From NCBI GenBank assembly GCA_022664555.1, contig GCA_022664555.1_4839.1: a DNA stretch of 23,185 nucleotides; one strand, written 5' to 3'. The notes under the pieces were generated by a model that was given only the letters and a program-made list of their open reading frames with translations, was not told the origin of the DNA and ran no database searches. Position numbers and translations under genes: made by a program. The stretch comes from Escherichia coli (GTDB lineage Bacteria > Pseudomonadota > Gammaproteobacteria > Enterobacterales > Enterobacteriaceae). Shown piece by piece: positions 3,944 through 21,722 of this stretch (position 1 is the stretch's first letter; each line of letters opens with the position of its first letter).

Positions 3944-4111
3944 TTACTTTTTCTTCAGCTCGTCCAGTTTGGCTTCGATCTGGTCCAGAATCTCTTTGCC
4001 TTTCTGAACAATCACTTCACCATCTTGCGCGTGTTTACGGAAGACCAGAGCACCAGCGATGAAGCCGACAACCGCGCTAGGAAGCGCATAAACCAGCAGA
4101 TCTTGTAACAT
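3944..4111 (-). CDS. small membrane protein (55 aa)
   Basis: Hand-translated ORF below the track cutoff: MLQDLLVYALPSAVVGFIAGALVFRKHAQDGEVIVQKGKEILDQIEAKLDELKKK. ATG at 4111-4109, TAA at 3946-3944, GAGGA SD about 8 nt upstream. One predicted TM helix. Confidence 0.5.
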   Translation of the reverse strand: MLQDLLVYALPSAVVGFIAGALVFRKHAQDGEVIVQKGKEILDQIEAKLDELKKK

Positions 4112-4116
4112 GATAA

Positions 4117-4141
4117 TATCCTCGCTTTATAGGCGAGGATA
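4117..4141 (-). promoter_or_regulatory. 9-bp hairpin that contains the SD of CDS 3944..4111
   Basis: TATCCTCGC / GCGAGGATA perfect inverted repeat with a 7-nt loop, sitting exactly between the stop of CDS 4148..5383 and the ATG at 4111. The GAGGA of the downstream SD lies inside the stem. Confidence 0.4.
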
Positions 4142-4147
4142 TTTATA

Positions 4148-9019: not shown

Positions 9020-12019
9020 TCAACCTTTCTTCTTTTGCATCATGGCAAGAAGGTTCACACGGCGCTTGTGTGACCAGCCGACCACGTCGAGGATAGACTG
9101 AATCGGATCAATGAAGGACTTCTCAAAGGCCGCCTGATAATCCACCCATTTGCCCAGACCAAGCTCCTCGGGGAAGAACTCAGGATATGCAAAGTAATTC
9201 TGGCCGAATGGGTTGCCCGGCTTCAACAACACCATCTGTACCTTATCACCCGACTCGATCATCGGTAGACCCAGATCTTCGTTCTTCTCAACCAGACGGT
9301 TGTAACCCACACAAGCCTTTGCAGCAAAATGAGCACCAGAGATGAACGATCCGTCAGCAGCCACACACTTCTCTATGTCGGACACGCCTGACGCCTTGGC
9401 GATATCGTCTACAGAGAGTTTCATGTACTCCTCTTTGTACTGGGAGATGAGCGTCTGTACTTCCTCTTCGGTGCCGAGTAGGATCTTCTCATAGCACTTG
9501 ACAAGACGCTCACGACACCATTCCGGCGTGGTGGACTTGCGGGCTTCCAGACCTTTGAACTTGATCTTCGGCTTCTCGTACTTGATACCCTCACTGTCGT
9601 ACACGGCCATGGCATACATCTTCTTGGCTCGCCAGACAGCGGCTGACGCAATGACCTCACGCTCCCACACCATGCGCTGTTCAAATCCGTTCATGGTGTT
9701 ACACAGAAGCTGTGCCCACTCATTGGTCTTCGGCTGGTAGTTGTCTTTGATCCATTGGTCGATATTATCAACCATAGCATGATGGTCAGTAACATCAGGC
9801 CACAACTGCTTGACAAGACGCTCAATGCAGATGTAGTTGGAGTCGGTATCCCCTGCGATGACGAAGTCCTGGCCTGTTGTACCACACAGCTTGTTCAGAT
9901 AATCATCGGTGTAACGCTTGTTCCACTTGTTGATCAGCTGACCGGATGTGGTGATGGCTTCGGCAATGTTGAGGTTGAAGTACTCTTTGAACCAGACGTT
10001 TGAGATCGCGCCATAACCTGCGTTCATCAAGATCTTCAGACCTTGCTGTAGGGTATCTTGAGCGACGCCCAGGTCTTCCCACTTCTTCATCACTTCGGTC
10101 AGGGCATCAAGATCAATGTTCTTGTGCTCTTCATACCACTCTGGGTCATAATAGCGAGACTTCATGGCAGACTCAAGATGGAAGTCACCCTTCGACATCT
10201 CTTTACACCAGCCAGCCCACTGCTCATACTTCAGACCCTTAGCTTTCTCTACTTTACGGTCGCTGTAGATACCACGCATGATTTCAGACAGGAACGACAT
10301 CTTCTCGTTGCTGAAGAATTGAACGTTCGGCGTGAACGACACGTTGTAACGGCGCAGGGTTTCAAAGTGGAACTCACCCAGGGCAACCAACTCATCAACA
10401 ACCTGCAGGCGTTCGTCAACCGCACGCAACAGCTTGTCGTGAAGGGCTTTCATCAACCGACGTTTGTGCATCGGCGTTGCCATGTTATTCATCTGAGCAG
10501 CCAGCTCTTCACACATAGCCTCAATGATCTCGCGGCGCTGGTGTTTGTCGCCAACGATAGTCTCTGGACCGAGGTTGTACTGCTGAATGATGTGAGGATA
10601 CAGGGAGTTCAAATCTTCCGAGAAGACCCAGAAGTAGATTCCTGGTGTCACATCCATGACGTATGCACCCTCAAAGTCGGTCGGACCATCGTATACACGC
10701 TGGATCTTAGGCACTACCCCCTTCTCGTACAGGCGATAATAGCACATCGCCAGCCACGGAGCCACAGTGCCCAGACCGTCTTCATAGTTGGACTTGGTGC
10801 GGTACGCAAGGACGAACATCAGCTGGAGCAGACGCAGCTTATGTTCAAGTCGCCATACCAGCTTAACGTCTTTGATACCATATCGGGTGTGTTTGCAGTA
10901 GTCGTTGAAGTACAGATCAAAGAGCGACTTGCTCTCACTGTAGTCCATCTTCTTCTCACCCAGCTCACAATACGCAATCCAGTCAAGAGAGTAGCGTTCA
11001 CGGGTGGTGTACGTGTGTTTCTTGTAGATCTGCATATAATCGAGCATAGGACAGCCCACGAACTGATACGTCGTGATATCGCCCTTCTTATCGCGAATGA
11101 TACGCTTCTTAATGATACCCCAAGGACTCAGACGCGACGTTTCAGCCTCACCCAGAACCTGATTCATGCGCTCAACAAGATAAGGGCTATCAAACGTCTC
11201 AATGTTCCAGCCAGTCCATCCGTCGAACTGACGCTCCGACCAGAAGTCTAGGAACGAGCGCAGCAGATCTTGTTCGGTGGTGAACTCCTGATAAACAACC
11301 TCAAGGCCGCCGATCTCTTTGTCTTCGGTGTCGTATGCGAATTTGTTACGATCTTTGGCACAGGGCATACCCCAGACCATGAACTTATTGGTCGCCATGT
11401 CCTGAAGCTGGATCAGGGTAATGGGGAACGCCGCATTCATGTCTTGGGTGATCTTACCGTTGCTGTCAATGATAGGGAACTTATCAGTGACGTTGTTGCT
11501 GATAAAGGAACTGGGAAAGTGCTCACGGACAAAATCATGGTTGGCCAGAACTTGTTTATGGAAGCGGCGAATGCGCGCCTCATTTCCTTTGAACGTCTGC
11601 TGCTCAATGGTTGGGTGAGGGAATGGACCTTTGGTCATCTTTCCATCTTTCCACCCGGCGGAGAACACTTCGATATCGAGGTTAGCAATATGGATGTTGG
11701 AATAATCCGGCTCAATCTTTCCGGGAAAGCTATGGGCAATGAACTGGTATGCATAATCGGTCTGCCCGTAAATGGCAGCACCCTGGACTTCCTTGTACTC
11801 TTCAAGATAGTTGTCAGCGTCACGCATGGAAGGGAACTGCTTGGCTACCAGGGGTTCATTGAGAAGGCCGACCTTTTCAACATTTGAATAGTCAGCCGTG
11901 GGTAAATAGAGAGTGGGTTCGAATTTCTTTTTCAACAGACGGCGATTACCCATGTCATCTGCAATTCGAATCAACAGGTCATTGCCCCTGCGGGCAACGT
12001 TCGTATAGAAAACGGTCAT
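9020..12019 (-). CDS. 43: family-B DNA polymerase, T4 gp43-like (999 aa)
   Basis: 3-kb track ORF. Exo I motif (ANLDIEVF), polymerase motif A (SEDLNSLYPHII) and motif C (IAGDTDSNYI). The N-terminus (FY...QFPSMRDA) resembles T4/RB69 gp43 as recalled. GGAG SD 6 nt before the ATG at 12019. Confidence 0.95.
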   Translation of the reverse strand: MTVFYTNVARRGNDLLIRIADDMGNRRLLKKKFEPTLYLPTADYSNVEKVGLLNEPLVAKQFPSMRDADNYLEEYKEVQGAAIYGQTDYAYQFIAHSFPGKIEPDYSNIHIANLDIEVFSAGWKDGKMTKGPFPHPTIEQQTFKGNEARIRRFHKQVLANHDFVREHFPSSFISNNVTDKFPIIDSNGKITQDMNAAFPITLIQLQDMATNKFMVWGMPCAKDRNKFAYDTEDKEIGGLEVVYQEFTTEQDLLRSFLDFWSERQFDGWTGWNIETFDSPYLVERMNQVLGEAETSRLSPWGIIKKRIIRDKKGDITTYQFVGCPMLDYMQIYKKHTYTTRERYSLDWIAYCELGEKKMDYSESKSLFDLYFNDYCKHTRYGIKDVKLVWRLEHKLRLLQLMFVLAYRTKSNYEDGLGTVAPWLAMCYYRLYEKGVVPKIQRVYDGPTDFEGAYVMDVTPGIYFWVFSEDLNSLYPHIIQQYNLGPETIVGDKHQRREIIEAMCEELAAQMNNMATPMHKRRLMKALHDKLLRAVDERLQVVDELVALGEFHFETLRRYNVSFTPNVQFFSNEKMSFLSEIMRGIYSDRKVEKAKGLKYEQWAGWCKEMSKGDFHLESAMKSRYYDPEWYEEHKNIDLDALTEVMKKWEDLGVAQDTLQQGLKILMNAGYGAISNVWFKEYFNLNIAEAITTSGQLINKWNKRYTDDYLNKLCGTTGQDFVIAGDTDSNYICIERLVKQLWPDVTDHHAMVDNIDQWIKDNYQPKTNEWAQLLCNTMNGFEQRMVWEREVIASAAVWRAKKMYAMAVYDSEGIKYEKPKIKFKGLEARKSTTPEWCRERLVKCYEKILLGTEEEVQTLISQYKEEYMKLSVDDIAKASGVSDIEKCVAADGSFISGAHFAAKACVGYNRLVEKNEDLGLPMIESGDKVQMVLLKPGNPFGQNYFAYPEFFPEELGLGKWVDYQAAFEKSFIDPIQSILDVVGWSHKRRVNLLAMMQKKKG

Positions 12020-12037
12020 GTAATTCTCCAGGTTATC

Positions 12038-12052
12038 CGTGCCGTTAGCACG
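12038..12052 (-). promoter_or_regulatory. short hairpin in the DNA polymerase 5' leader (possible translational operator)
   Basis: CGTGC-nnnnn-GCACG 5-bp stem about 15-20 nt upstream of the polymerase SD on the mRNA strand. The position is analogous to the T4 gene 43 autoregulatory operator. Confidence 0.3.
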
Positions 12053-12098
12053 TGGGCATATTTAACCATAGAGCCATTCATTGACCAAGGAGTTTATT

Positions 12099-12671
12099 AT
12101 GGCAATCCCCCTCGTTGGTATGATCCCAGGGGCGCTCAAGCAACTCTGGAACCTCGGGACTGATTTGATACAATATAAGAGGGAAGTTGTACAGGCAAAA
12201 CACGACTTCAAGCTGGAGTACATCAAATACTCATCAGATTGTGAGCTGTCTAAGATCACCGAAGTCGGCGTGTCTTGGAAAGACGAATTCTGGACTATCG
12301 TGTTGGCCATACCCGCCATCCTCGTCATGACTGCTCCGGTTGTGGAACTGATTCTGTTCCCTGGTGAGTATCATAAAGGGGATTTCATCAAAGCAGTAAT
12401 CGGTGGCCTTCAGGCACTAGACACCGCACCTGAATGGTATACCTATTCGTTATTGACAGCAATTAGTGCATCATTCGGTATCAAAGGCTACAACCACTAC
12501 AAAAGCAACAGGCGAAAAGCCCAAGCTATGGATGCTCTCAAGCAATTTGGGGTTCGGGTCGTACAGAAAGATCCCACTGTTGTTACTCAGTCGGGTGCTC
12601 CCGATCTTGAGTCTGCTCCCCCAGCTGGGTCTACTGCGACCTCTGGTGCGTGGCCTGATCTGAAGAAATAA
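12099..12671 (+). CDS. membrane protein (190 aa)
   Basis: Track ORF 12081..12671 (TTG start) trimmed to the ATG at 12099 with a canonical AAGGAG SD 6 nt upstream. Two hydrophobic segments (AIPLVGMIPGAL; FWTIVLAIPAILVMTAPVVELILF). Diverges from the polymerase gene. Confidence 0.6.
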   Translation: MAIPLVGMIPGALKQLWNLGTDLIQYKREVVQAKHDFKLEYIKYSSDCELSKITEVGVSWKDEFWTIVLAIPAILVMTAPVVELILFPGEYHKGDFIKAVIGGLQALDTAPEWYTYSLLTAISASFGIKGYNHYKSNRRKAQAMDALKQFGVRVVQKDPTVVTQSGAPDLESAPPAGSTATSGAWPDLKK

Positions 12672-12677
12672 GTTCAA

Positions 12678-12702
12678 GGGGAGGAAACTCCCCTTTCTTT
12701 TG
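12678..12702 (+). terminator. intrinsic terminator
   Basis: GGGGAG-GAAA-CTCCCC (6-bp stem, GNRA-type tetraloop) followed by TTTCTTTTGG, just after the stop of CDS 12099..12671. Confidence 0.75.
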
Positions 12703-12713
12703 GTGTTTAGGGA

Positions 12714-12926
12714 ATGAATGTGGTAAACAAGAGATTGCTCGTCACCCAAGGCGGGGCGACGATAGTACGCGGAAGGATCTATGAACAAACACAGCTGGGC
12801 GATCATAAGACGCGCCTGACTGTTAAGGCTCCCGATGGTGGTTGGCCGACAAAGGTGATTGTCCCAGACGGTCTCATAGAACGAGGGACGGCGACGTACA
12901 GGGGAGCAGAGTTCAAAATTTATTAA
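12714..12926 (+). CDS. small hypothetical protein (70 aa)
   Basis: Track ORF. Start ambiguous: ATG at 12714 has AGGGA only 1-2 nt upstream; GTG at 12720 would give better spacing. Confidence 0.45.
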   Translation: MNVVNKRLLVTQGGATIVRGRIYEQTQLGDHKTRLTVKAPDGGWPTKVIVPDGLIERGTATYRGAEFKIY

Positions 12927-12943
12927 AATATTTATTGAATAAA

Positions 12944-12972
12944 GTTTACTTCTTCAATAACTGGCGTATACT
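12944..12972 (+). promoter_or_regulatory. sigma70/T4-early-like promoter candidate for CDS 13022..13579
   Basis: GTTTAC (12944-12949), 17-bp spacer, TATACT (12967-12972). AT-rich upstream region containing the palindrome TTTATTGAATAAA (12931-12943). Transcription start would be about 40 nt before the ATG. Confidence 0.4.
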
Positions 12973-13021
12973 TCTAATTGTAGTACGAACAAACAACAAT
13001 CTGAAGAGAAGGAAATACATC

Positions 13022-13579
13022 ATGGCAATCGAAATTATCGCTCAATCCAAATCTGGTAAAACTGTAATGTACGGCACTGAAGAAGGCCGCGCAATCACCA
13101 CTCTGGGCACAATTGACGGTTCCAACCCAGTGAAAGGCGGTCGCTACCTGGTTGAATACGGTTCACACCTGCTGATGGTAAGCAAAGTCGATGGTCGTGA
13201 AATCATGATTCCCCGCAAAGAGTACTTCGACTCGCGCATTGAAGCCATGAACTTCTTCCTTTTCCAGGAACGTCACGAACTGTTCGTTGAAGCGAAAGAC
13301 GCAGGCCTGGACGATGCGACTGCCGAACTGATCGCTGAAGGTAAAATGACTCTTGAGGCTGCTCTGGGTGACATGGATTGCGATGCTGAAGCCCATTACA
13401 TCGAATATTCCGCTTATCAGAATGAATGCGAAGACGATCCTGAAGATGACGGCTTCGACCCTGACCTTCACGGTGGCGAGGATGACAATACTCCTTCCCT
13501 GGAAGTGATCATGGCAGGCGGTCAGGCCGCTTGGGAGTGGCAGAACGAAAAGAACGCCTGGCTGGATTCTCACCTTTAA
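13022..13579 (+). CDS. hypothetical acidic protein (185 aa)
   Basis: Track ORF 12842..13579 trimmed to the ATG at 13022 (AAGGAAA SD, spacing about 8). The 5' extension in the track overlaps the preceding gene and the promoter-like region. Confidence 0.6.
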   Translation: MAIEIIAQSKSGKTVMYGTEEGRAITTLGTIDGSNPVKGGRYLVEYGSHLLMVSKVDGREIMIPRKEYFDSRIEAMNFFLFQERHELFVEAKDAGLDDATAELIAEGKMTLEAALGDMDCDAEAHYIEYSAYQNECEDDPEDDGFDPDLHGGEDDNTPSLEVIMAGGQAAWEWQNEKNAWLDSHL

Positions 13580-13589
13580 TGTGAAGAAA

Positions 13590-13620
13590 TAAAGAAAGGG
13601 GCTTAACGCCCCTTTTCTTA
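13590..13620. terminator. bidirectional intrinsic terminator between convergent genes
   Basis: AAAGGGGC-TTAAC-GCCCCTTT stem (GGGGC 13598-13602 / GCCCC 13608-13612, extended by A-T pairs) with T-tracts on both strands. Confidence 0.7.
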
Positions 13621-14076
13621 TTCTTCCCAGAAGTCTTCGTCGTCCCCGACAGCAGCCAGTTCCGTGTCCAGTTCTTCATCGGTAAACGGTGGCAGCACCC
13701 CGTTCTGAATCAGATAATCCATCTCATCGTCTTCCAGCTGCAGGTCGGTGGCAATATACAGCGCTCCACTGCCTTCTTCGTCCGTCTCGATGCTGTATGA
13801 AGTGTATGGCACTCCATTCACTGTAATGATGATAGAGGTCGGATCCTTGGGATCTACGTGCGCCTCGAACGGCACACCATCAATCGGTGCATCTTCCAGG
13901 AAGGTAGCAAGTGCTACGGCGGCGCGGACAACATCAGTGCCTTCAACGCCCGCATAGATCTCTTCCGCGCCTGTCTCTTCACGATCAAACAGCTCAATCG
14001 TGATACCGTCTTGAACACCAGTCCATACAGGGATGTCATTGGTGTATTCTGATTCAAACAATTTGGAGGTTGGCAT
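13618..14076 (-). CDS. hypothetical acidic protein (152 aa)
   Basis: Track ORF; ATG at 14076 with GAGGAA SD 5 nt upstream. Strongly Asp/Glu-rich. Confidence 0.6.
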   Translation of the reverse strand: MPTSKLFESEYTNDIPVWTGVQDGITIELFDREETGAEEIYAGVEGTDVVRAAVALATFLEDAPIDGVPFEAHVDPKDPTSIIITVNGVPYTSYSIETDEEGSGALYIATDLQLEDDEMDYLIQNGVLPPFTDEELDTELAAVGDDEDFWEE

Positions 14077-14101
14077 GTTGGGTTCCTCAGTGGGTTAGCC
14101 A

Positions 14102-14212
14102 TATGGGGTATTTAGGCTTCCCGCTTGGCGAGGCCTGGTTTGTACAGGGCACCTCTAGGAAATATTGGAGGAAGGTTTTCATAGATACCCCACACGGATT
14201 GTATGGGGTATT
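14102..14212 (-). promoter_or_regulatory. intergenic array of ATACCCC(A) repeats, with a late-promoter-like CTAAATAC
   Basis: On the minus strand AATACCCCATA occurs twice (plus 14102-14113 and 14202-14212), with an inverted copy (plus 14185-14194) that forms an 8-bp hairpin ATACCCCA / TGGGGTAT (14185-14192 / 14203-14210). The proximal copy reads CTAAATACCCCATAT about 30 nt upstream of the ATG at 14076. Confidence 0.35.
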
Positions 14213-14221
14213 CAGGAGGGA

Positions 14222-15415
14222 TCAGGAAGGGGTGAAGTCGTTTACAGGAACTGTTTCAGGGATAGCCAGCTCAGGGCATGCTGCCTTCATCGACTCGATG
14301 TACGGCTTGCTACCCACAATCCAGAACAGAGTGTTCTCATTGAGCAACTCGGGCTTGTGTTGCTGAACCCAGGTCATGACCTTGCCTTCATAGCGAGGAT
14401 GCAACTCAATATCGCCCCACTGATATTCCATCAGGTCATTATAACGAACCCAATTAGTGGTATGAAGATCCCAATGGTGTACCTCAAAGCGAGGAAGCAC
14501 GACCTCTGGCTCTTCCTTCTGCCTGATACCACTTAGGAGGCCAGCCAGCGAAACGCTCTTAGAGGCATGCTGAAGCTCCTTCTTGCCGTGTACATAGTCT
14601 GGGTTGTCGTGATAGCGACGGGTAAAGTCGACAATGTGCGGCAGATTGGCATGTTTGCCGATGATGCGCAGACGACTCTCGATAAAGTCCAGACGGTTCG
14701 GACCGATGCCAATCAGATACACACGCTTCAGATTAGGCTTCGGATGCATTGCCAGCCCGGTCAGGATGCTTGTGCAAGAGTTGCACGATCCGGCTGGGAT
14801 GATCAGGTCAGTAATGTGATCAGGAATGTTGGCAACCTGCTCGCCACCCAACATATGGAACCCAGCAATGCGCTCAGGGGAGTGGGCTGTATGGTCGAGG
14901 GTGATACCATACTCCAGATAATACGCCTTTGGATTCTGTTGTTCGATCAACTTCTTACAGCGCGGCTGGATGGTGCTGTTGTAACCCGAGCCGACGAAGT
15001 TGAACTCACTACCAAACCAGGCTGACATTACCACCATTTCATGGTTCATACAGGTGGTGGGTTTGGTCGCGCCGAGCACAGTAGTTGTCTTGCCGCCGAA
15101 GTGCCGAGAGACTGCTGTCGCCATAGGGGACTGCGGACTACCAACGACAGTACCATGGATGATGTCAGGGGAGCCTCCGGCCTTGAGGTGCTCAACCATC
15201 AACCAGATGGCCTGGCGGAGTTTGCTGCCATTGATGCCCTGCTTGGCGTTGGCATAGTTAGACAGCGGCGCAAAATAATCTTCACGCTTGAACCAGACCT
15301 GCTGGTTGGTTTCGGGATTGACGACAAGTTCGCACGGGGTGTGCTTGTAGAGATAGTCTTCCCAGTGAACCAGATTGCGGTCGAGGGAAAGGGTATCGAA
15401 AATGGTCTTGTTCAT
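14222..15415 (-). CDS. PLP-dependent enzyme, ACC deaminase / D-cysteine desulfhydrase-like fold (397 aa)
   Basis: Track ORF 14222..15436 trimmed to the ATG at 15415 (GGAGA SD, spacing 7). WFKREDY...GINGSKLRQAIWLMVEHLKAGG...IIHGTVVGSPQSPMATAVS matches the pattern YIKRDD...GGNKLRKLEFLV...LIT.GAIQSNH of that family as recalled, including the candidate PLP-binding Lys. Confidence 0.55.
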   Translation of the reverse strand: MNKTIFDTLSLDRNLVHWEDYLYKHTPCELVVNPETNQQVWFKREDYFAPLSNYANAKQGINGSKLRQAIWLMVEHLKAGGSPDIIHGTVVGSPQSPMATAVSRHFGGKTTTVLGATKPTTCMNHEMVVMSAWFGSEFNFVGSGYNSTIQPRCKKLIEQQNPKAYYLEYGITLDHTAHSPERIAGFHMLGGEQVANIPDHITDLIIPAGSCNSCTSILTGLAMHPKPNLKRVYLIGIGPNRLDFIESRLRIIGKHANLPHIVDFTRRYHDNPDYVHGKKELQHASKSVSLAGLLSGIRQKEEPEVVLPRFEVHHWDLHTTNWVRYNDLMEYQWGDIELHPRYEGKVMTWVQQHKPELLNENTLFWIVGSKPYIESMKAACPELAIPETVPVNDFTPS

Positions 15416-15423
15416 TCTATTTT

Positions 15424-15463
15424 CTCCTGTAGACATTGGTTTATCATAGTGTATCTACAGGAG
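15424..15463 (-). promoter_or_regulatory. 10-bp inverted repeat that sequesters the SD of CDS 14222..15415
   Basis: CTCCTGTAGA (15424-15433) and TCTACAGGAG (15454-15463) are perfect reverse complements separated by 20 nt. On the mRNA the 3' arm contains the GGAG SD; the upstream in-frame ATG at 15436 lies in the loop. Confidence 0.45.
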
Positions 15464-15485
15464 TATAGAAAAGGAGAATCTCGGC

Positions 15486-16142
15486 TTATTTCTTGAATAA
15501 ACGAAGGAACTTCATCATGTTTTCCATGAAAGTCGGCTTCTTGACCTTTTGTTTTACCGGAGCGCCCTGATCATTCAGAACACGACTGACCGGAGGAGTA
15601 GGTGGTGTCGGCGCTTTCGTTTCACAGGCCGGAACGATGTTCACGTCATGATGAGAAGACTCAGATGTAGTGTTAACAACATTGTTCTCCTGGACGACAG
15701 GCTTGACGAGATTCTTTTCGTACTCACGCGCCATGGCCTGATACATCAGATTCAAATCCACCAGATCAACAGACTTGACCTTGCGACGACGCCAATTGGC
15801 GCTTTCTTCGCCATAGAAATCATATCCGTTTCTGATCAGCCAGTGTACGGCTTGTTCAAAAGAACCGAAGACCATAAGCGGAGCGCCCTGGCCTTTCTCA
15901 GATTGTTCCAGGCTACTATAACCCATCAATACAACCTGGCCTTTGATACTCAAATCAAACGTCATACCAAGGTTCGGGATGTTTTTATCGCGGCGGAAGA
16001 ACCCGCCATCACGGTAGACGTAAACAGGCGAAAGGAACTCATTCAGAGTACGCTTGACACCCTTGTATTGGAAGAGTCTGACAATTGGAGGGGTGTCATG
16101 GGAAATCACTTCGTTCAATTCCCAGATAGAAACATTACGCAT
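15486..16142 (-). CDS. hypothetical protein (218 aa)
   Basis: Track ORF; ATG at 16142 with GAGGAT SD 6 nt upstream. Proline-rich linker (KAPTPPTPPV) and basic C-terminus. Confidence 0.6.
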   Translation of the reverse strand: MRNVSIWELNEVISHDTPPIVRLFQYKGVKRTLNEFLSPVYVYRDGGFFRRDKNIPNLGMTFDLSIKGQVVLMGYSSLEQSEKGQGAPLMVFGSFEQAVHWLIRNGYDFYGEESANWRRRKVKSVDLVDLNLMYQAMAREYEKNLVKPVVQENNVVNTTSESSHHDVNIVPACETKAPTPPTPPVSRVLNDQGAPVKQKVKKPTFMENMMKFLRLFKK

Positions 16143-16166
16143 TGGTGTATCCTCAAATCTATGATA

Positions 16167-16195
16167 GGGGGTTAACGGTTAAATTTTAAACCCCC
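16167..16195. other. GC-clamped hairpin in the 5' leader of CDS 15486..16142
   Basis: GGGGGTT...AACCCCC 7-bp stem with a 15-nt AT-rich loop, followed on the plus strand by TTTGTAT. Confidence 0.35.
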
Positions 16196-16261
16196 TTTGT
16201 ATCATTGAACAAACTACGATAAAGGAGGACATGCTTGGGTCGATAAGAAGATAATAAGACA

Positions 16262-16295
16262 GGGATAAAAAGAAAGCCGGATAGGATATCCGGCT
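16262..16295 (-). terminator. intrinsic terminator at the downstream (minus-strand) end of the tRNA region
   Basis: AGCCGGATA-GGA-TATCCGGCT perfect 9-bp stem (16275-16295) followed on the minus strand by TTCTTTTTATCCC (plus 16262-16274). Confidence 0.7.
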
Positions 16296-16352
16296 ATACC
16301 ACATCGATGGGATGGGTTGAAAGACTACACGCTTGCACTGGTACTACCCTAT

Positions 16353-16380
16353 GGGAGAGCGCGTCAGGAGTCGAACCTGA
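16353..16380 (-). pseudogene. tRNA 3'-end fragment (T-arm plus acceptor 3' strand), no anticodon arm found
   Basis: Minus strand reads TCAGG-TTCGACT-CCTGA-CGCGCTC-T-CCC: a perfect 5-bp T-stem with canonical T-loop, then a 7-nt acceptor-like strand. I could not find a matching 5' acceptor, D-arm or anticodon arm within tRNA distance. Confidence 0.35.
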
Positions 16381-16512
16381 AGTCGTCGACGTAGAGAAAG
16401 CTATTTGCATTTCACTATCCTCGCCGCGATTTTCTTAACTTCCTAAACACCCCGATTACGAGAGAGTCGACATGCACATCTTCTAACTCTTCAGGAAGTC
16501 ACGCCCGTAATT

Positions 16513-16601
16513 TGGCGGAAGGTGAAGGATTCGAACCTTCGGGGGCTAAAAGCCCCACTCGATTAGCAATCGAGTCCCTTAAACCTCTCGGGCAACCTTC
16601 C
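16513..16601 (-). tRNA. tRNA-Ser (anticodon GCU), class II with long variable arm, CCA encoded
   Basis: Reverse complement folds by hand into a cloverleaf: acceptor GGAAGGT/ACCTTCC (7 bp perfect), anticodon stem CTCGA/TCGAG with loop TTGCTAA, variable arm GGGGC-TTTTA-GCCCC, T-arm GAAGG-TTCGAAT-CCTTC, discriminator G, CCA. Confidence 0.9.
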
Positions 16602-16821
16602 AATTTGGACGGGCTTCGCACCCGATTGAGCATTTGATCTACCGTAGCCCAACTCCCCGCGCTTCTCAGCGCCGATTGGTTAACTGGCGACCAGTGCCTT
16701 CTGGTTCGATCTCCTAGAAGTTTACATGCTTTGCTGCCGACCATTTCTGGTAGTTAGGGCATCGTTTCCGATGTGGAGTCACCCCATTTTATACACAGCT
16801 GGCTGCAATGCTTACTGTGTT

Positions 16822-16898
16822 TGGTGATCCTGGTTGGATTTGAACCAACGACCAATGAATTATGAGTTCACTGCTCTAACCGACTGAGCTACAGGACC
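16822..16898 (-). tRNA. tRNA with CAU anticodon (elongator Met, or Ile2 if lysidine-modified), CCA encoded
   Basis: Reverse complement: acceptor GGTCCTG/CAGGATC, D-arm GCTC-AGTCGGTTA-GAGC, anticodon stem GTGAA/TTCAT with loop CTCATAA, T-arm GTTGG-TTCAAAT-CCAAC, discriminator A, CCA. G1-C72 pair argues against an initiator. Confidence 0.88.
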
Positions 16899-17802
16899 AA
16901 ATTATTGTGTGACCAACCAAGGACTGTCAACCCTTTATCCCGTTTGTGCATGATCAGTTCATGCAGGCCTCTTTGTGCTGCCTCACGGCATGCGCTTCTG
17001 TTGGTCATTGGCTTACACTGTGGCCTCACAACAGGCGTTTATTTTTCCAGGGCTTTCCACTTGCAAGTCTTGACCATACAGGGATACGGGCTTACAAGAT
17101 CGGGTTGGACACAACTTTGATGGCTCTGGTATTAAAGATCCCGCGTCACCCATAGACATGGTTTATAAATCCAGAGCCATCAAAGTTGCAACCAATGTCG
17201 CAACTCGCAGCTTCCATGCAGAAGAAACTTGTCCTCTAACGCTCGGACCAAACGAGGCTGGCTGGTTGATTCAGAGCCGCTGGTTGCTCCAGCAAGCATG
17301 GGTTGATAGCCCGGCAACATAGAATCACCCAAAGTTGAAGAACACTCAGTGGTACAAGCCAGGGATACCAATTTCAGGTCCTTTGCGAGTTCTTTAAATG
17401 CTCTTCATTTTGTGAACTTGAGAATACTACGCCTGTCTCGGGTTTCCCCTTAGTTCGGCCTCCCAGTCCTCGCCGCGCCGGGTAGCTAACCCTGATGGCT
17501 CGTCTGCTACTGAGTTCTTCTTGGTGCCCACCAGTGTCCGGAATGTGTAGGCATCGCAATCTGCAAGGCATGGTCTATTTCACCCAATGCTCTCTCAAGT
17601 TCACAAATCGAAGTGCCCTGACTCAACAGTATAGCCCAATATGCTGTTATCGTCCACCGGATTGGCCACCCACTTCGTAGATCAACCTTTGGGTTTAAGA
17701 TAAATTGTCAAGGCACTTCGATTTGTGTGCCCTTCACCTGCCAGGGATCAGGGCTGATGGCAAGACTTCGCTCACATCTTTCAAGATACTCGTGAGAATA
17801 TC

Positions 17803-19007: not shown

Positions 19008-19577
19008 TTATTTTAACACTTCTAACTTCACAATACGACGCAGAAGGTAAACATATTCGCCAGCAGCTTCATGCGTCATATAATGGGTAGAAGGTGTGGA
19101 ATGAGTGTTCTGGGTTTCTTTTAATCCAACACGTTCTGCCCAACCATTAATAGAGTTCCCATAGAAACCGATAATCGCACCAAAATAAATGCGCCCGCTT
19201 TCTGGCTCTAAAACATAGTTGACAGTGAAGCAAATGTCAGAACGAATAGACTCCAGTTTCATACCAACACGACCTTCAGAGAATTCGTTACGAACATATA
19301 AATGACGGAAGCGATCGCGCCGTGCTTGTGATGATTCTTCCAATTCTTGTCGAAGTGAAGAAGTTATGTCAATATTAAATGAAAATGTTGGATTTCGTAA
19401 ATCAGAACGAGCCAACTCTAAGGCAGATTCAATAACGCGGCGGAAATTGATACTTTTACCTGTCAGGCGTTTCACTTCATCGGTGATTGTTTCAAAAGGG
19501 ATTTTCGTGGCGCGTTCCCCTTCGTATTTTGCTAACAAAGGAATAATGTGTTTCATGATTGCTGTGTTAATGTGCAT
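19008..19577 (-). CDS. hypothetical protein in an AT-rich islet (189 aa)
   Basis: Track ORF; ATG at 19577 with GAGG SD about 7 nt upstream. Visibly lower GC and different codon choice from the surrounding genes. No motif I can assign (no GIY-YIG, HNH, Walker or HAD signature). Confidence 0.6.
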   Translation of the reverse strand: MHINTAIMKHIIPLLAKYEGERATKIPFETITDEVKRLTGKSINFRRVIESALELARSDLRNPTFSFNIDITSSLRQELEESSQARRDRFRHLYVRNEFSEGRVGMKLESIRSDICFTVNYVLEPESGRIYFGAIIGFYGNSINGWAERVGLKETQNTHSTPSTHYMTHEAAGEYVYLLRRIVKLEVLK

Positions 19578-19895: not shown

Positions 19896-19903
19896 GCTAA
19901 ATA
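19896..19903 (+). promoter_or_regulatory. late-promoter-like CTAAATAT upstream of the gp6-like gene
   Basis: CTAAATAT lies 41 nt upstream of the ATG at 19944 and resembles the T4 late promoter core TATAAATA. The same CTAAATA core precedes CDS 13618..14076 on the minus strand. Confidence 0.3.
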
Positions 19904-19943
19904 TCTTCAACACCATATTCAAACTCAGGTGATGGAGATTATC

Positions 19944-21722
19944 ATGGCCACGCAAACAGTCCCTTCACTCGATGTCAGGGCTTTCGAGTATCTTATCAAG
20001 AAGCGCATGAAAGCTGATCCAACTTTCAAGGATTATGACTTTGAAGGTTCTGGTCTCAGTGCAATCGTGCGTATCTTGGCCTCGGATGCCAACTCTATCG
20101 GGTTCATGCAGAACATGCTGAATGGCGAAAGCCATCTTCACTCTGCTCAACAGCGTTCTAATGTCGGTCTTGCGGCCGGGTTCTTGTCGTACACCCCTCA
20201 TAACTACCAGGCGGCGTACCTGTACGCAAACGTCACAGTCACTCCATATGACGCCAGCACGGCTCCGGACACGATTATAATGGATCGCCGCGCGATGTTC
20301 ATTGGGGCGAAGGATGGCAAATCCTACAACTTCACGGTTGAACAACCTGTGAGTGCCTCTCTTGTAGACGGCTCTTACAAGTTCGAGAACATCAAACTCA
20401 TACAGGGTAACTGGCTGTACAAGTCCTATGATGTGGAAGGCAGCGCGATCTCTACCTATGTGATCCCATCTTCTTCCGTGGACATCGACCATATGGTGGT
20501 GCAGGTGCAGGAATCTGAGACATCTGACGTGCGGTCTACCTTCTCACGATACGTAAGCCCGTTCGATTTGAGCCAGTATGCGCAACTTTACTTCGTTGAG
20601 CTGGGGTTGGACGGGATGTACACGTTCGAATTCGGTGATGGGTATATCTGTAAGCGAGTAGAAGACGGGAACGTCGTGTACCTCCAGTATCTGGAGACAG
20701 CTGGTGCAGACGGCAATGACATCACTGCCTTGTCCTCCGCGTCTTCCATCGGGGGATTCAACCTTGTAGAAGTTGAGCTGGTCTCAGAACGTTCTTCCTG
20801 TGGTGCGGACCCAGAGAGCATTGAGGACATCAAGCGCCTTGCTCCGCTGGCTTATCAGGCTGAGGGTGCGGCAGTGGCCGAAGTCGATTATGCTGTGTTG
20901 ACCGAGCGTCTGTTCTCCAACGTCTCCCGCGCCAAAGCATATGGCGGCGACACGCTCTCTCCGCCCGACTCCGGATACGTTTACATTGCTGTGATACCTT
21001 CTGTTGGTGAGGCGCTCTCGGACGCTGAGAAGGCAGATATCGTGGCGACGTTGGACAAGTATAATGTGGGCACGATCACACCCAAGATTGTCGACGCTGA
21101 ACTGACTTATGTTGATGTCACCACCCGCGTGTTCTGGGATCCGACTTCCACGACCTACACCGAAGAGCAGTTGAAGACAGTCGTGAAGAACGGTGTTGTC
21201 AACTGGGGCTTGGGGAACCTAGAAGGATTCGACGAACTGTTCGATAAAGAGCAGTTACAGTCGGACATCACAGACATGGACAGATCGATAGTGTCAAACA
21301 TCACTTCTGTGAAGTATAAGCGCCATTTCAAGCCAGACTATGGGGTACTGGACAGCTTCACGTTCGATTATGGGCGCTCGATTGCATCTGGTTCTGTGCG
21401 TATCAGTGGGTTTAAGCCGCTTCCGGCCGAGGTCGAATTCACTTACTACATACGCGACGTCAGTGGTGTCCTGAATATGTACAAGGTGAGTACAACAGAC
21501 ACGACCAAGGAATATCTGGTACAAGCTGTTGGAACGGTTGAATATGTGAATGGCGTTGTTGAACTCCAGCGCATCACAGTATCCAACAACAACACCCAGG
21601 GAGAGAAAATAATCGAGTCTCCAGACGGTCTTGACCAGAACATTCAGGCCACACAGAATCAGGTGCTCCGCATTGGTGCTGTAACTGTGGAGCCGGAGGT
21701 GCGTTATGTCCAAAGATCTTAA
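19944..21722 (+). CDS. 6: baseplate wedge protein, T4 gp6-like / P2 gpJ-like (592 aa)
   Basis: Track ORF 19893..21722 (TTG start) trimmed to the ATG at 19944 with GGAGA SD 5 nt upstream. The N-terminal region DPTFKDYDFEGSGLSAIVRILASDANSIGFMQNM resembles T4 gp6 (EFLDYDFEGSRLNVLCDLLAYNTLYIQQFGN) as recalled. Confidence 0.8.
   Translation: MATQTVPSLDVRAFEYLIKKRMKADPTFKDYDFEGSGLSAIVRILASDANSIGFMQNMLNGESHLHSAQQRSNVGLAAGFLSYTPHNYQAAYLYANVTVTPYDASTAPDTIIMDRRAMFIGAKDGKSYNFTVEQPVSASLVDGSYKFENIKLIQGNWLYKSYDVEGSAISTYVIPSSSVDIDHMVVQVQESETSDVRSTFSRYVSPFDLSQYAQLYFVELGLDGMYTFEFGDGYICKRVEDGNVVYLQYLETAGADGNDITALSSASSIGGFNLVEVELVSERSSCGADPESIEDIKRLAPLAYQAEGAAVAEVDYAVLTERLFSNVSRAKAYGGDTLSPPDSGYVYIAVIPSVGEALSDAEKADIVATLDKYNVGTITPKIVDAELTYVDVTTRVFWDPTSTTYTEEQLKTVVKNGVVNWGLGNLEGFDELFDKEQLQSDITDMDRSIVSNITSVKYKRHFKPDYGVLDSFTFDYGRSIASGSVRISGFKPLPAEVEFTYYIRDVSGVLNMYKVSTTDTTKEYLVQAVGTVEYVNGVVELQRITVSNNNTQGEKIIESPDGLDQNIQATQNQVLRIGAVTVEPEVRYVQRS

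Follow-up and report, generated by a model that had tools for sequence, protein, structure and literature searches.

In the T4 genes e, soc, 49, I-TevI and segB, and in mobE of Aeromonas phage Aeh1, early and middle transcripts that read through from upstream form a helix that sequesters the ribosome-binding site (RBS), and translation is left to transcripts from a late promoter in the 5′ strand, which lack this helix (PMC3014915, PMC2988022). The late box deduced for Aeh1 is CTAAATA (PMC1524935). Here we analyse a window of 23,185 nucleotides (nt), from contig GCA_022664555.1_4839.1 of Escherichia coli assembly GCA_022664555.1, in which the same heptamer stands in a cluster of repeats, ATACCCCATA, within a 145-nt spacer (14077–14221). 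The spacer separates two minus-strand genes, one for an enzyme of 404 amino acids (aa) that depends on pyridoxal phosphate (PLP) and one for a 152-aa protein. We favour, with a probability of roughly 0.65, the reading that late promoters and an RBS-occluding promoter-in-hairpin module, here a relic, explain the repeats.

Under this reading, ViI-like phages would transcribe their late genes by a T4-type gp55/gp33/gp45 system, and ATACCCCATA would be the downstream half of a late promoter of the form C-TAAATA-CCCC-ATA, made up of the 3′ end of the −10-like box (ATA), a pyrimidine-rich spacer (CCCC) and an A-rich initiation site (ATA). The proximal copy would drive late transcription of the 152-aa virion-protein gene, and the distal and inverted copies would together form the promoter-in-hairpin module of a lost gene for a virion ADP-ribosyltransferase (ART). 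In relatives with the gene intact, read-through transcripts from the PLP-enzyme gene would contain both arms, and the 11-bp hairpin folded from them would hide the ribosome-binding region just ahead of the AUG. Transcripts made late would begin within the 5′ arm, could not form the hairpin and would be translatable. The module in the window would be a relic, with its target gene gone and its box mutated to CTGAATA. Ordinary phage biology would then account for the repeat cluster, by way of two late promoters, a hairpin that occludes the RBS and the deletion of a gene. The elements of the spacer are as follows.

14102–14116, minus strand: putative proximal late promoter CCTAAATACCCCATA of the 152-aa gene, core CTAAATA at 14115–14109, predicted start at about 14104–14102
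14209–14215, minus strand: putative distal late-promoter box, CTGAATA here (A to G at 14213), from comparison with relatives
14087–14182, minus strand: remnant of an ART-PolyVal gene, from alignments to relatives
14185–14211, minus strand: RNA hairpin AUACCCCAUAC-AAUCC-GUGUGGGGUAU, 11 pairs, one of them G·U

The repeated element and the late-promoter box

The repeat ATACCCCATA occurs exactly on the minus strand at 14111–14102 and 14211–14202, with an inverted copy, ATACCCCACA, on the plus strand at 14185–14194. Allowing up to one mismatch, the window contains five matches, compared with 0.93 expected, and none of 100 shuffles reached five, which bears out the two direct copies and one inverted copy of ATACCCC(A) listed in a preliminary description of this DNA. 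The direct repeat is 15 nt long with a single mismatch (CCTAAATACCCCATA versus CCTGAATACCCCATA) at a spacing of 100 nt and, because it extends this far, the distal copy is itself a promoter-like box carrying the A-to-G change at 14213. CTAAATA is found in the window at 14115–14109 (minus strand) and 19897–19903 (plus strand), ending 32 nt before the ATG of the 152-aa gene at 14076 and 40 nt before the ATG of gp6 at 19944. These positions agree with the preliminary description, which had put the proximal copy about 30 nt before the coding sequence (CDS) 13618–14076 and a second core before the gp6-like gene. Within the window alone, CTAAATA is not enriched (2 occurrences, 1.44 expected; 40 of 100 shuffles reach 2).

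A tandem gene duplication was considered as the source of the direct repeat and rejected, since no similarity was seen between the ADP-ribosyltransferase and the 152-aa protein; the genes flanking the proximal copy are therefore not paralogues, and the direct repeat is not a duplication scar. A scan of IMG/VR for TAAATACCCC-N(5–25)-GGGGTAT returned at least 120 matches on unrelated contigs and was uninformative, because by our rough estimate that number is about what chance would give for 17 specified bases in so large a collection.

The case for a promoter comes from LIMEstone1, a relative about 92% identical to the window at the spacer locus. Motifs were counted on both strands of its complete annotated genome, and scored when the motif ended 11–60 nt upstream of a CDS start on the same strand.

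TAAATA: 54 occurrences, 32 upstream of a CDS, 1.8 expected (p ~1e-33)
CTAAATA: 20 occurrences, 15 upstream of a CDS, 0.66 expected
TATAAATA: 7 occurrences, 5 upstream of a CDS, 0.23 expected

The genome-wide search for CTAAATA upstream of genes that the preliminary description had suggested, run in LIMEstone1, thus came out in favour of a promoter, with A/T-rich control hexamers showing a much weaker concentration upstream of genes. The genes downstream of the boxes include ORF173, ORF174, gp6, the tail sheath gene, tailspikes and endolysin. Alignment of the 32 sites yields C(>A)-TAAATA-Y-C-Y-Y as the consensus, with A-rich positions 5–7 nt after the box, which is where we would place the start of transcription; the matrix contains no conserved −35-like or other upstream positions beyond the C at −1. 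The sequence CTAAATACCCCATA (14115–14102, minus strand) is a near-consensus site and reads as the late promoter from which the 152-aa virion protein is expressed, with no significant RNA structure at the proximal promoter (z = 0.26). Enrichment upstream of LIMEstone1 genes extends to a variant hexamer, TAAGTA (7 of 17, p = 1.4e-7), and CTAAGTA precedes gp6 in the Vibrio Ackermannviridae-like phage D493 (L027); TAAGTA may be a second accepted form of the late box.

At the proximal and distal sites (those of ORF174 and ORF173, respectively), CTAAATA is invariant across Agtrevirus, Limestonevirus, Kuttervirus and Taipeivirus, the exceptions being the distal CTGAATA of the window and of phage PC3. 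The LIMEstone1 record (NC_019925) already marks a ‘putative late promoter’ at both orthologous sites and before gp6, and annotates homologues of gp55, gp33 and gp45 as ORF091, ORF053 and ORF120. A late promoter before gp6, together with gp55, gp33 and gp45 homologues, has likewise been reported for phage Ag3 (phiSboM-AG3) (PMC3121705). Because these three genes fall outside the 23-kb window, we infer them in the window phage from relatives that are 92–97% identical. The concentration upstream of genes, the existing annotation, the invariance across genera and the homologues annotated in relatives all uphold the earlier proposal that CTAAATA is a variant T4-type late promoter. We found no published CTAAATACCCC or extended late-promoter consensus for Ackermannviridae in the searchable literature, and C-TAAATA-YCYY-A would provide a usable one for ViI-like phages, which are widely used in biocontrol and therapy.

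The gene remnant and its hairpin

The 145 nt had first been taken for plain intergenic DNA, but alignment to relatives reveals in them the two ends of a deleted gene. The spacer is the remainder after a deletion of approximately 390 nt from the gene of a virion ADP-ribosyltransferase, the homologue of LIMEstone1 ORF173. In AV101, LIMEstone1, Vi01, CBA120 and Menlow, a gene of 150–154 aa is intact between the two copies of the repeat. The flanks are approximately 900 nt apart in these phages and in most of the 278 matching records, compared with 520 nt here, and the direct copies are about 490 nt apart where the gene is intact. The intact AV101 protein contains an ART-PolyVal domain (Pfam PF18760, E = 2.7e-10, above the cut-off). 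A virion-packaged ADP-ribosyltransferase recalls Alt of T4.

The remnant keeps the upstream region, the ATG (14182–14180) and roughly 10 codons from the 5′ end of the gene; these meet the final 13 or so codons at a junction near 14151/14150. It is frameshifted here, forming a 31-codon open reading frame (ORF) that ends at TGA 14089–14087, and the original ART stop codon, TAA 14114–14112, lies inside the proximal CTAAATA. The identical deletion occurs in PC3, CECAV_050, MK-13, SP-9-14 and two IMG/VR genomes and, since these phages were sequenced independently, it is a lineage trait rather than an assembly error. A subclade of Agtrevirus has thus lost the ART-PolyVal gene through one shared internal deletion of about 390 nt (window 14087–14182, minus strand; L001 8114–8578, minus strand), and AV101 and the other genera retain the gene. 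The loss, which leaves part of Agtrevirus without a virion-packaged ADP-ribosyltransferase, was not found described in the searchable literature. Since the deletion, the remnant has been decaying separately among its carriers: indels put it in different frames, SP-9-14 carries an in-frame 23-codon fusion and L014 has a further deletion. Across the deletion carriers, the box and arms vary at 1 of 26 columns and the remnant at 16 of 70 (p = 0.035).

The distal box reads CTAAATA in AV101, LIMEstone1, Vi01, CBA120, Menlow, CECAV_050, MK-13 and SP-9-14, and CTGAATA in the window and in PC3. Partly overlapping it is the hairpin, for which 8 bp had initially been counted and in which we find 11 pairs. 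Its 5′ arm (14211–14201) overlaps the distal box (14215–14209) and the predicted start site; a loop follows (14200–14196), and the 3′ arm (14195–14185) spans the G-rich tract for ribosome binding and stops 2 nt short of the remnant ATG at 14182. In a 48-nt segment, the hairpin has a predicted energy of −17.8 kcal/mol (z = −4.4), and none of 200 shuffles folds as well. An RNA starting at 14204, a position set by an assumed T4-like spacing, reaches only −3.4 kcal/mol, compared with −17.8 for the read-through RNA. Every relative has the same layout, TGA(stop)-N10-CCTAAATACCCCATAC-loop-GTGTGGGGTAT-N2/3-ATG, with arms that are invariant over four genera and loops of 5–6 nt that vary (AATCC, AACCA, AACCC, AGCAA, GACCA and AAACCA). 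The helix would block 30S binding and lower translation.

Recurrence of the design and alternative explanations

The same arrangement is found elsewhere in the window, at two further genes.

4109–4147, minus strand: TATAAATA at 4147–4140, followed by the hairpin AUAUCCUCGC-loop-GCGAGGAUAU, before the ATG at 4111 of a 55-aa ORF (3944–4111)
19897–19946, plus strand: predicted late promoter CTAAATA of gp6 (baseplate wedge) at 19897–19903, leader hairpin, ATG at 19944

The module of the 55-aa ORF is the cleanest promoter-in-hairpin example in the window: a 10-bp hairpin sequesters GAGGA, with −17.7 kcal/mol (z = −5.8) compared with −1.7 for the late-start RNA, and the orthologous site in LIMEstone1 (147905) is annotated as a late promoter. 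In the gp6 leader, 19903–19914 pairs with 19928–19939, so that the promoter and start region is paired with the GGAG Shine–Dalgarno (SD) sequence, and an outer helix reaches the AUG (−19.4 kcal/mol, z = −5.0, compared with −7.2 for the predicted late transcript). This leader carries double compensatory changes in Erwinia phage Bue1 (U-A to A-U and C-G to A-U). Compensatory changes are also present in Serratia phage 3M and in IME250/Madison, with G·U and C-G variants seen in 3M and Taipeivirus.

Such hairpins were counted across LIMEstone1 where 7 nt or more of the SD/AUG region were paired with sequence before the start and where shifting the 5′ end to the predicted transcript start cost 7 kcal/mol or more. 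They are present at 9 of the 31 starts headed by TAAATA and at 12 of 169 other starts (Fisher p = 0.0013), and in 200 dinucleotide shuffles the set averaged 1.45 hairpin-positive starts and never exceeded 6. The arms are specific to each gene yet complementary to its own SD region, as in AUAUCCUCGC/GUGAGGAUAU, AAAUACCCCUAAAUG/CAUUUAGGGGUAUUU and AUACUCUUUAACC/GGUGAAGGAGUAU. For the endolysin gene (L004, 54246–54282, minus strand), the arms are AUACCUUCGC/GCGGAGGUAU and a 13-bp hairpin (−18 kcal/mol) contains the late box and masks GGAGG, a structure that the record calls a terminator. Over the 31 modules, sense RNA folds better than antisense (p = 0.019), as expected for a feature that acts at the level of RNA. 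A different solution to the same problem is seen at the orthologous 152-aa gene of an IME250-like Serratia phage (L020, 1125–1203), where a perfect 15-bp helix, GGTTCTCAGTGTGG...CCACACTGAGGATC (−25.3 kcal/mol), has its 5′ arm upstream of the promoter and CTAAATA in the loop, and again buries the Shine–Dalgarno sequence.

The late-promoter-in-hairpin trick of T4 would thus recur in a distant T4 relative, at many genes including those for endolysin and gp6; we found no recognition of so wide a use in Ackermannviridae in the searchable literature. One could go further and propose a grammar for the whole family, in which the pyrimidine tract after the box doubles as an anti-Shine–Dalgarno strand and about a third of the late genes are translationally silent on transcripts that do not come from their own late promoter. 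We put this forward tentatively, and would sooner doubt it than rely on it.

Several observations weigh against the promoter-in-hairpin reading of the spacer. Its stems are invariant and lack true covariation, the sole change being a G·U to A-U in L018; a search with the 152-aa protein yielded only 8 related loci, so deep covariation statistics are not possible there. The G-rich tract, UGGGGU, matches the Shine–Dalgarno sequence only weakly. The stop codon of the PLP-enzyme gene is just 10 nt before the hairpin, where terminating ribosomes might open it. The relic arms are still conserved after the loss of the gene, which could reflect another function. Some LIMEstone1 modules are located between two late genes, where the need for a block on early translation is not obvious. 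Finally, no transcript 5′ ends or timing for any member of the Ackermannviridae were found in the literature, which is why the start inside the 5′ arm is given here as a prediction. Hairpins of this kind might retain a second role, acting as leaky terminators or protecting RNA ends, which would explain the conservation of the relic.

That second function, taken as the main one, is the leading alternative: the hairpin would mostly terminate transcription or stabilize the 3′ end of the PLP-enzyme mRNA, and its overlap with promoter and RBS would be incidental, or the functions would be combined. The start of the hairpin 10 nt past the PLP-gene stop codon fits this, as does the conservation of the relic arms despite the loss of the gene downstream. 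The Menlow record calls the orthologous hairpin a terminator, as the LIMEstone1 record does for the analogous endolysin hairpin, and in Taipeivirus the stem is followed by UUUUAUG. The UAUUU of the 3′ arm also gives a terminator-like layout; the arm carries it because the 5′ arm carries AAAUA. However, in the window, Agtrevirus, Limestonevirus and Kuttervirus the tail is CUAUGAAAACC, without a U-tract, and the terminator scan reported no intrinsic terminator at 14185–14211. A role as the terminator of the unit was rejected, as the terminator-like hairpin that closes the unit is at 13594–13616. The gp6 and ORF55-type hairpins lack a U-tract too, yet always end at the SD/AUG. We consider termination or 3′-end protection unlikely as the principal role of the spacer hairpin but plausible as a secondary one.

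A still-active distal box is more doubtful. In that case, the 152-aa gene would have two tandem late promoters, as T4 gene e does (PMC3014915), and the remnant would be a long leader. Several deletion carriers retain a perfect distal CTAAATA, and conservation is higher in the box and arms than in the remnant. In the window and PC3, however, the box is CTGAATA, and most single changes in the T4 late box strongly reduce activity. Upstream of LIMEstone1 genes, TGAATA shows no excess (1 of 90, 2.4 expected), so the distal box, probably once the promoter of the lost ADP-ribosyltransferase gene, is probably dead in the window phage. The preliminary description had suggested a promoter fused to an operator-like repeat. 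On such a reading, ATACCCC(A) would be the site of a phage protein that either represses or activates late transcription, or binds RNA and represses translation. That 110 nt contain three copies, above chance, and that the arms are invariant across the genera examined is what an operator would predict, and T4 I-TevI has an operator that overlaps its late promoter (PMC2988022). The details point elsewhere. The proximal CCCCATA tail is changed to TCCCATAA in Vi01 and to GTCCAAAG in CBA120 while CTAAATA stays, which argues against a shared operator, and the tail fits the general consensus TAAATA-Y-C-Y-Y with its A-rich start region. The inverted copy forms the 3′ arm of the RNA hairpin, whose two arms are 5 or 6 nt apart, and the direct copies are about 490 nt apart where the gene is intact. 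The arms at other genes are unrelated in sequence and complementary to their own SD region, and the G·U of the stem would be an A·C mismatch on the other strand, with the sense RNA folding better. The fused operator thus drops out of the earlier account, and we regard an operator as the least probable of these explanations, and very improbable in absolute terms.

Genomic context and comparison with described systems

Positions 12000–17000 of the window match Escherichia phage AV101 at 96.6% identity and 100% query cover by megablast; other Aglimvirinae/Agtrevirus phages match at 91–96% identity, and matches to Limestonevirus, Kuttervirus and Taipeivirus are weaker. By these matches, the window is assigned to an Agtrevirus-type ViI-like phage of the Ackermannviridae, and ViI-like phages are distant relatives of T4. 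The spacer belongs to a minus-strand unit that runs from the tRNAs through a 218-aa ORF, the PLP-dependent enzyme, the spacer itself and the 152-aa ORF to a terminator-like hairpin; the two tRNAs are the only known RNA families in the window according to Rfam. The features around the spacer are listed below.

13594–13616: bidirectional intrinsic-terminator-like hairpin, just 3′ of the 152-aa gene and closing the minus-strand unit, from the terminator scan; the LIMEstone1 record has a terminator annotated at the equivalent position
13618–14076, minus strand: 152-aa gene without an assigned function, PHROG 3852, homologue of LIMEstone1 ORF174, with the Shine–Dalgarno GAGGA at 14088–14084 and the ATG at 14076
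14222–15436, minus strand: PLP-dependent enzyme of 404 aa, the upstream gene, PHROG 3650; Pfam PALP below the cut-off
16516–16601 and 16825–16898, minus strand: two tRNA genes

LIMEstone1 ORF173 and ORF174 are both virion proteins, as confirmed by mass spectrometry (PMC3296691, Table 2). The PLP enzyme, whose homologues are labelled threonine ammonia lyase/dehydratase in the records of relatives, is the homologue of ViI gp226 (Vi01_182, record note orf00226), one of five proteins that reconstitute the 5-NeOmdU hypermodification of thymidine (PMC5889632). A near-consensus sigma-70-like sequence, TTGACA-18-AATAAT at 16930–16901 (minus strand), just upstream of the second tRNA, is by this match a candidate early promoter that would feed the unit containing the spacer. 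We infer that the PLP-enzyme gene is transcribed early or in the middle period and read through, because of the DNA-modification function of its product and this sigma-70-like match, both of them circumstantial.

Three further observations concern the window outside this unit. DNA polymerase is encoded by a single unbroken 999-aa ORF (9020–12019, minus strand), whereas homing-endonuclease genes divide the LIMEstone1 version into three (ORF178–182). A TTAAATA box lies at 12065–12059 (minus strand), 39 nt upstream of the polymerase ATG. The minus strand carries two copies of a 16-mer, CTTTATTCAATAAATA, at 12942–12927 and 19003–18988, whose upstream flanks are alike (TTAGAAGT...); one of them comes after the stop codon of ORF 19008–19577, the other is upstream of 12471–12806, and LIMEstone1 has none. 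It may be a repeated promoter/terminator cassette, or the boundary of a mobile element.

Similar to T4-type late promoters (TATAAATA; gp55, gp33 and the gp45 clamp), the putative promoters described here have one −10-like A/T box, lack a −35 element and show an invariant TAAATA core located 24–52 nt before the starts of late (virion) genes; homologues of gp55, gp33 and gp45 are encoded in the phage family. As in Aeh1, C is preferred at the corresponding position. They differ from the T4 box in that the first two positions are relaxed, with C the commonest and then A, in that a pyrimidine-rich YCYY tract, often CCCC, follows the box, and in that the starts are predicted. At positions orthologous to those in the window, the promoters of LIMEstone1 ORF173 and ORF174 and of phiSboM-AG3 gp6 were predicted in 2011–2012 by similarity to T4 (PMC3296691; PMC3121705). 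The LIMEstone1 and phiSboM-AG3 records give only the 6-nt −10 signal, with no hairpin coupling, extended consensus or deletion of the ORF173 homologue.

The hairpins resemble those of T4 e, soc, 49 and I-TevI in burying the SD/AUG and in having the late box in, or just upstream of, the 5′ arm, and the endolysin gene of LIMEstone1 has the layout of the T4 lysozyme gene e. As in T4 e-type control, an upstream gene on the same strand with a pre-late function would feed the read-through transcripts. Unlike in T4, this control is predicted here; it would apply to about 29% of the late-promoter-headed genes of LIMEstone1, some of them flanked by late genes, and the spacer module in the window has no gene and a mutated box. 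These results do not overturn current understanding: the promoter annotation of 2011–2012 and the hairpin logic of T4 were already known, and the points not found in the searchable literature are the extended consensus, the wide coupling of late promoters to hairpins and the loss of the ADP-ribosyltransferase gene.

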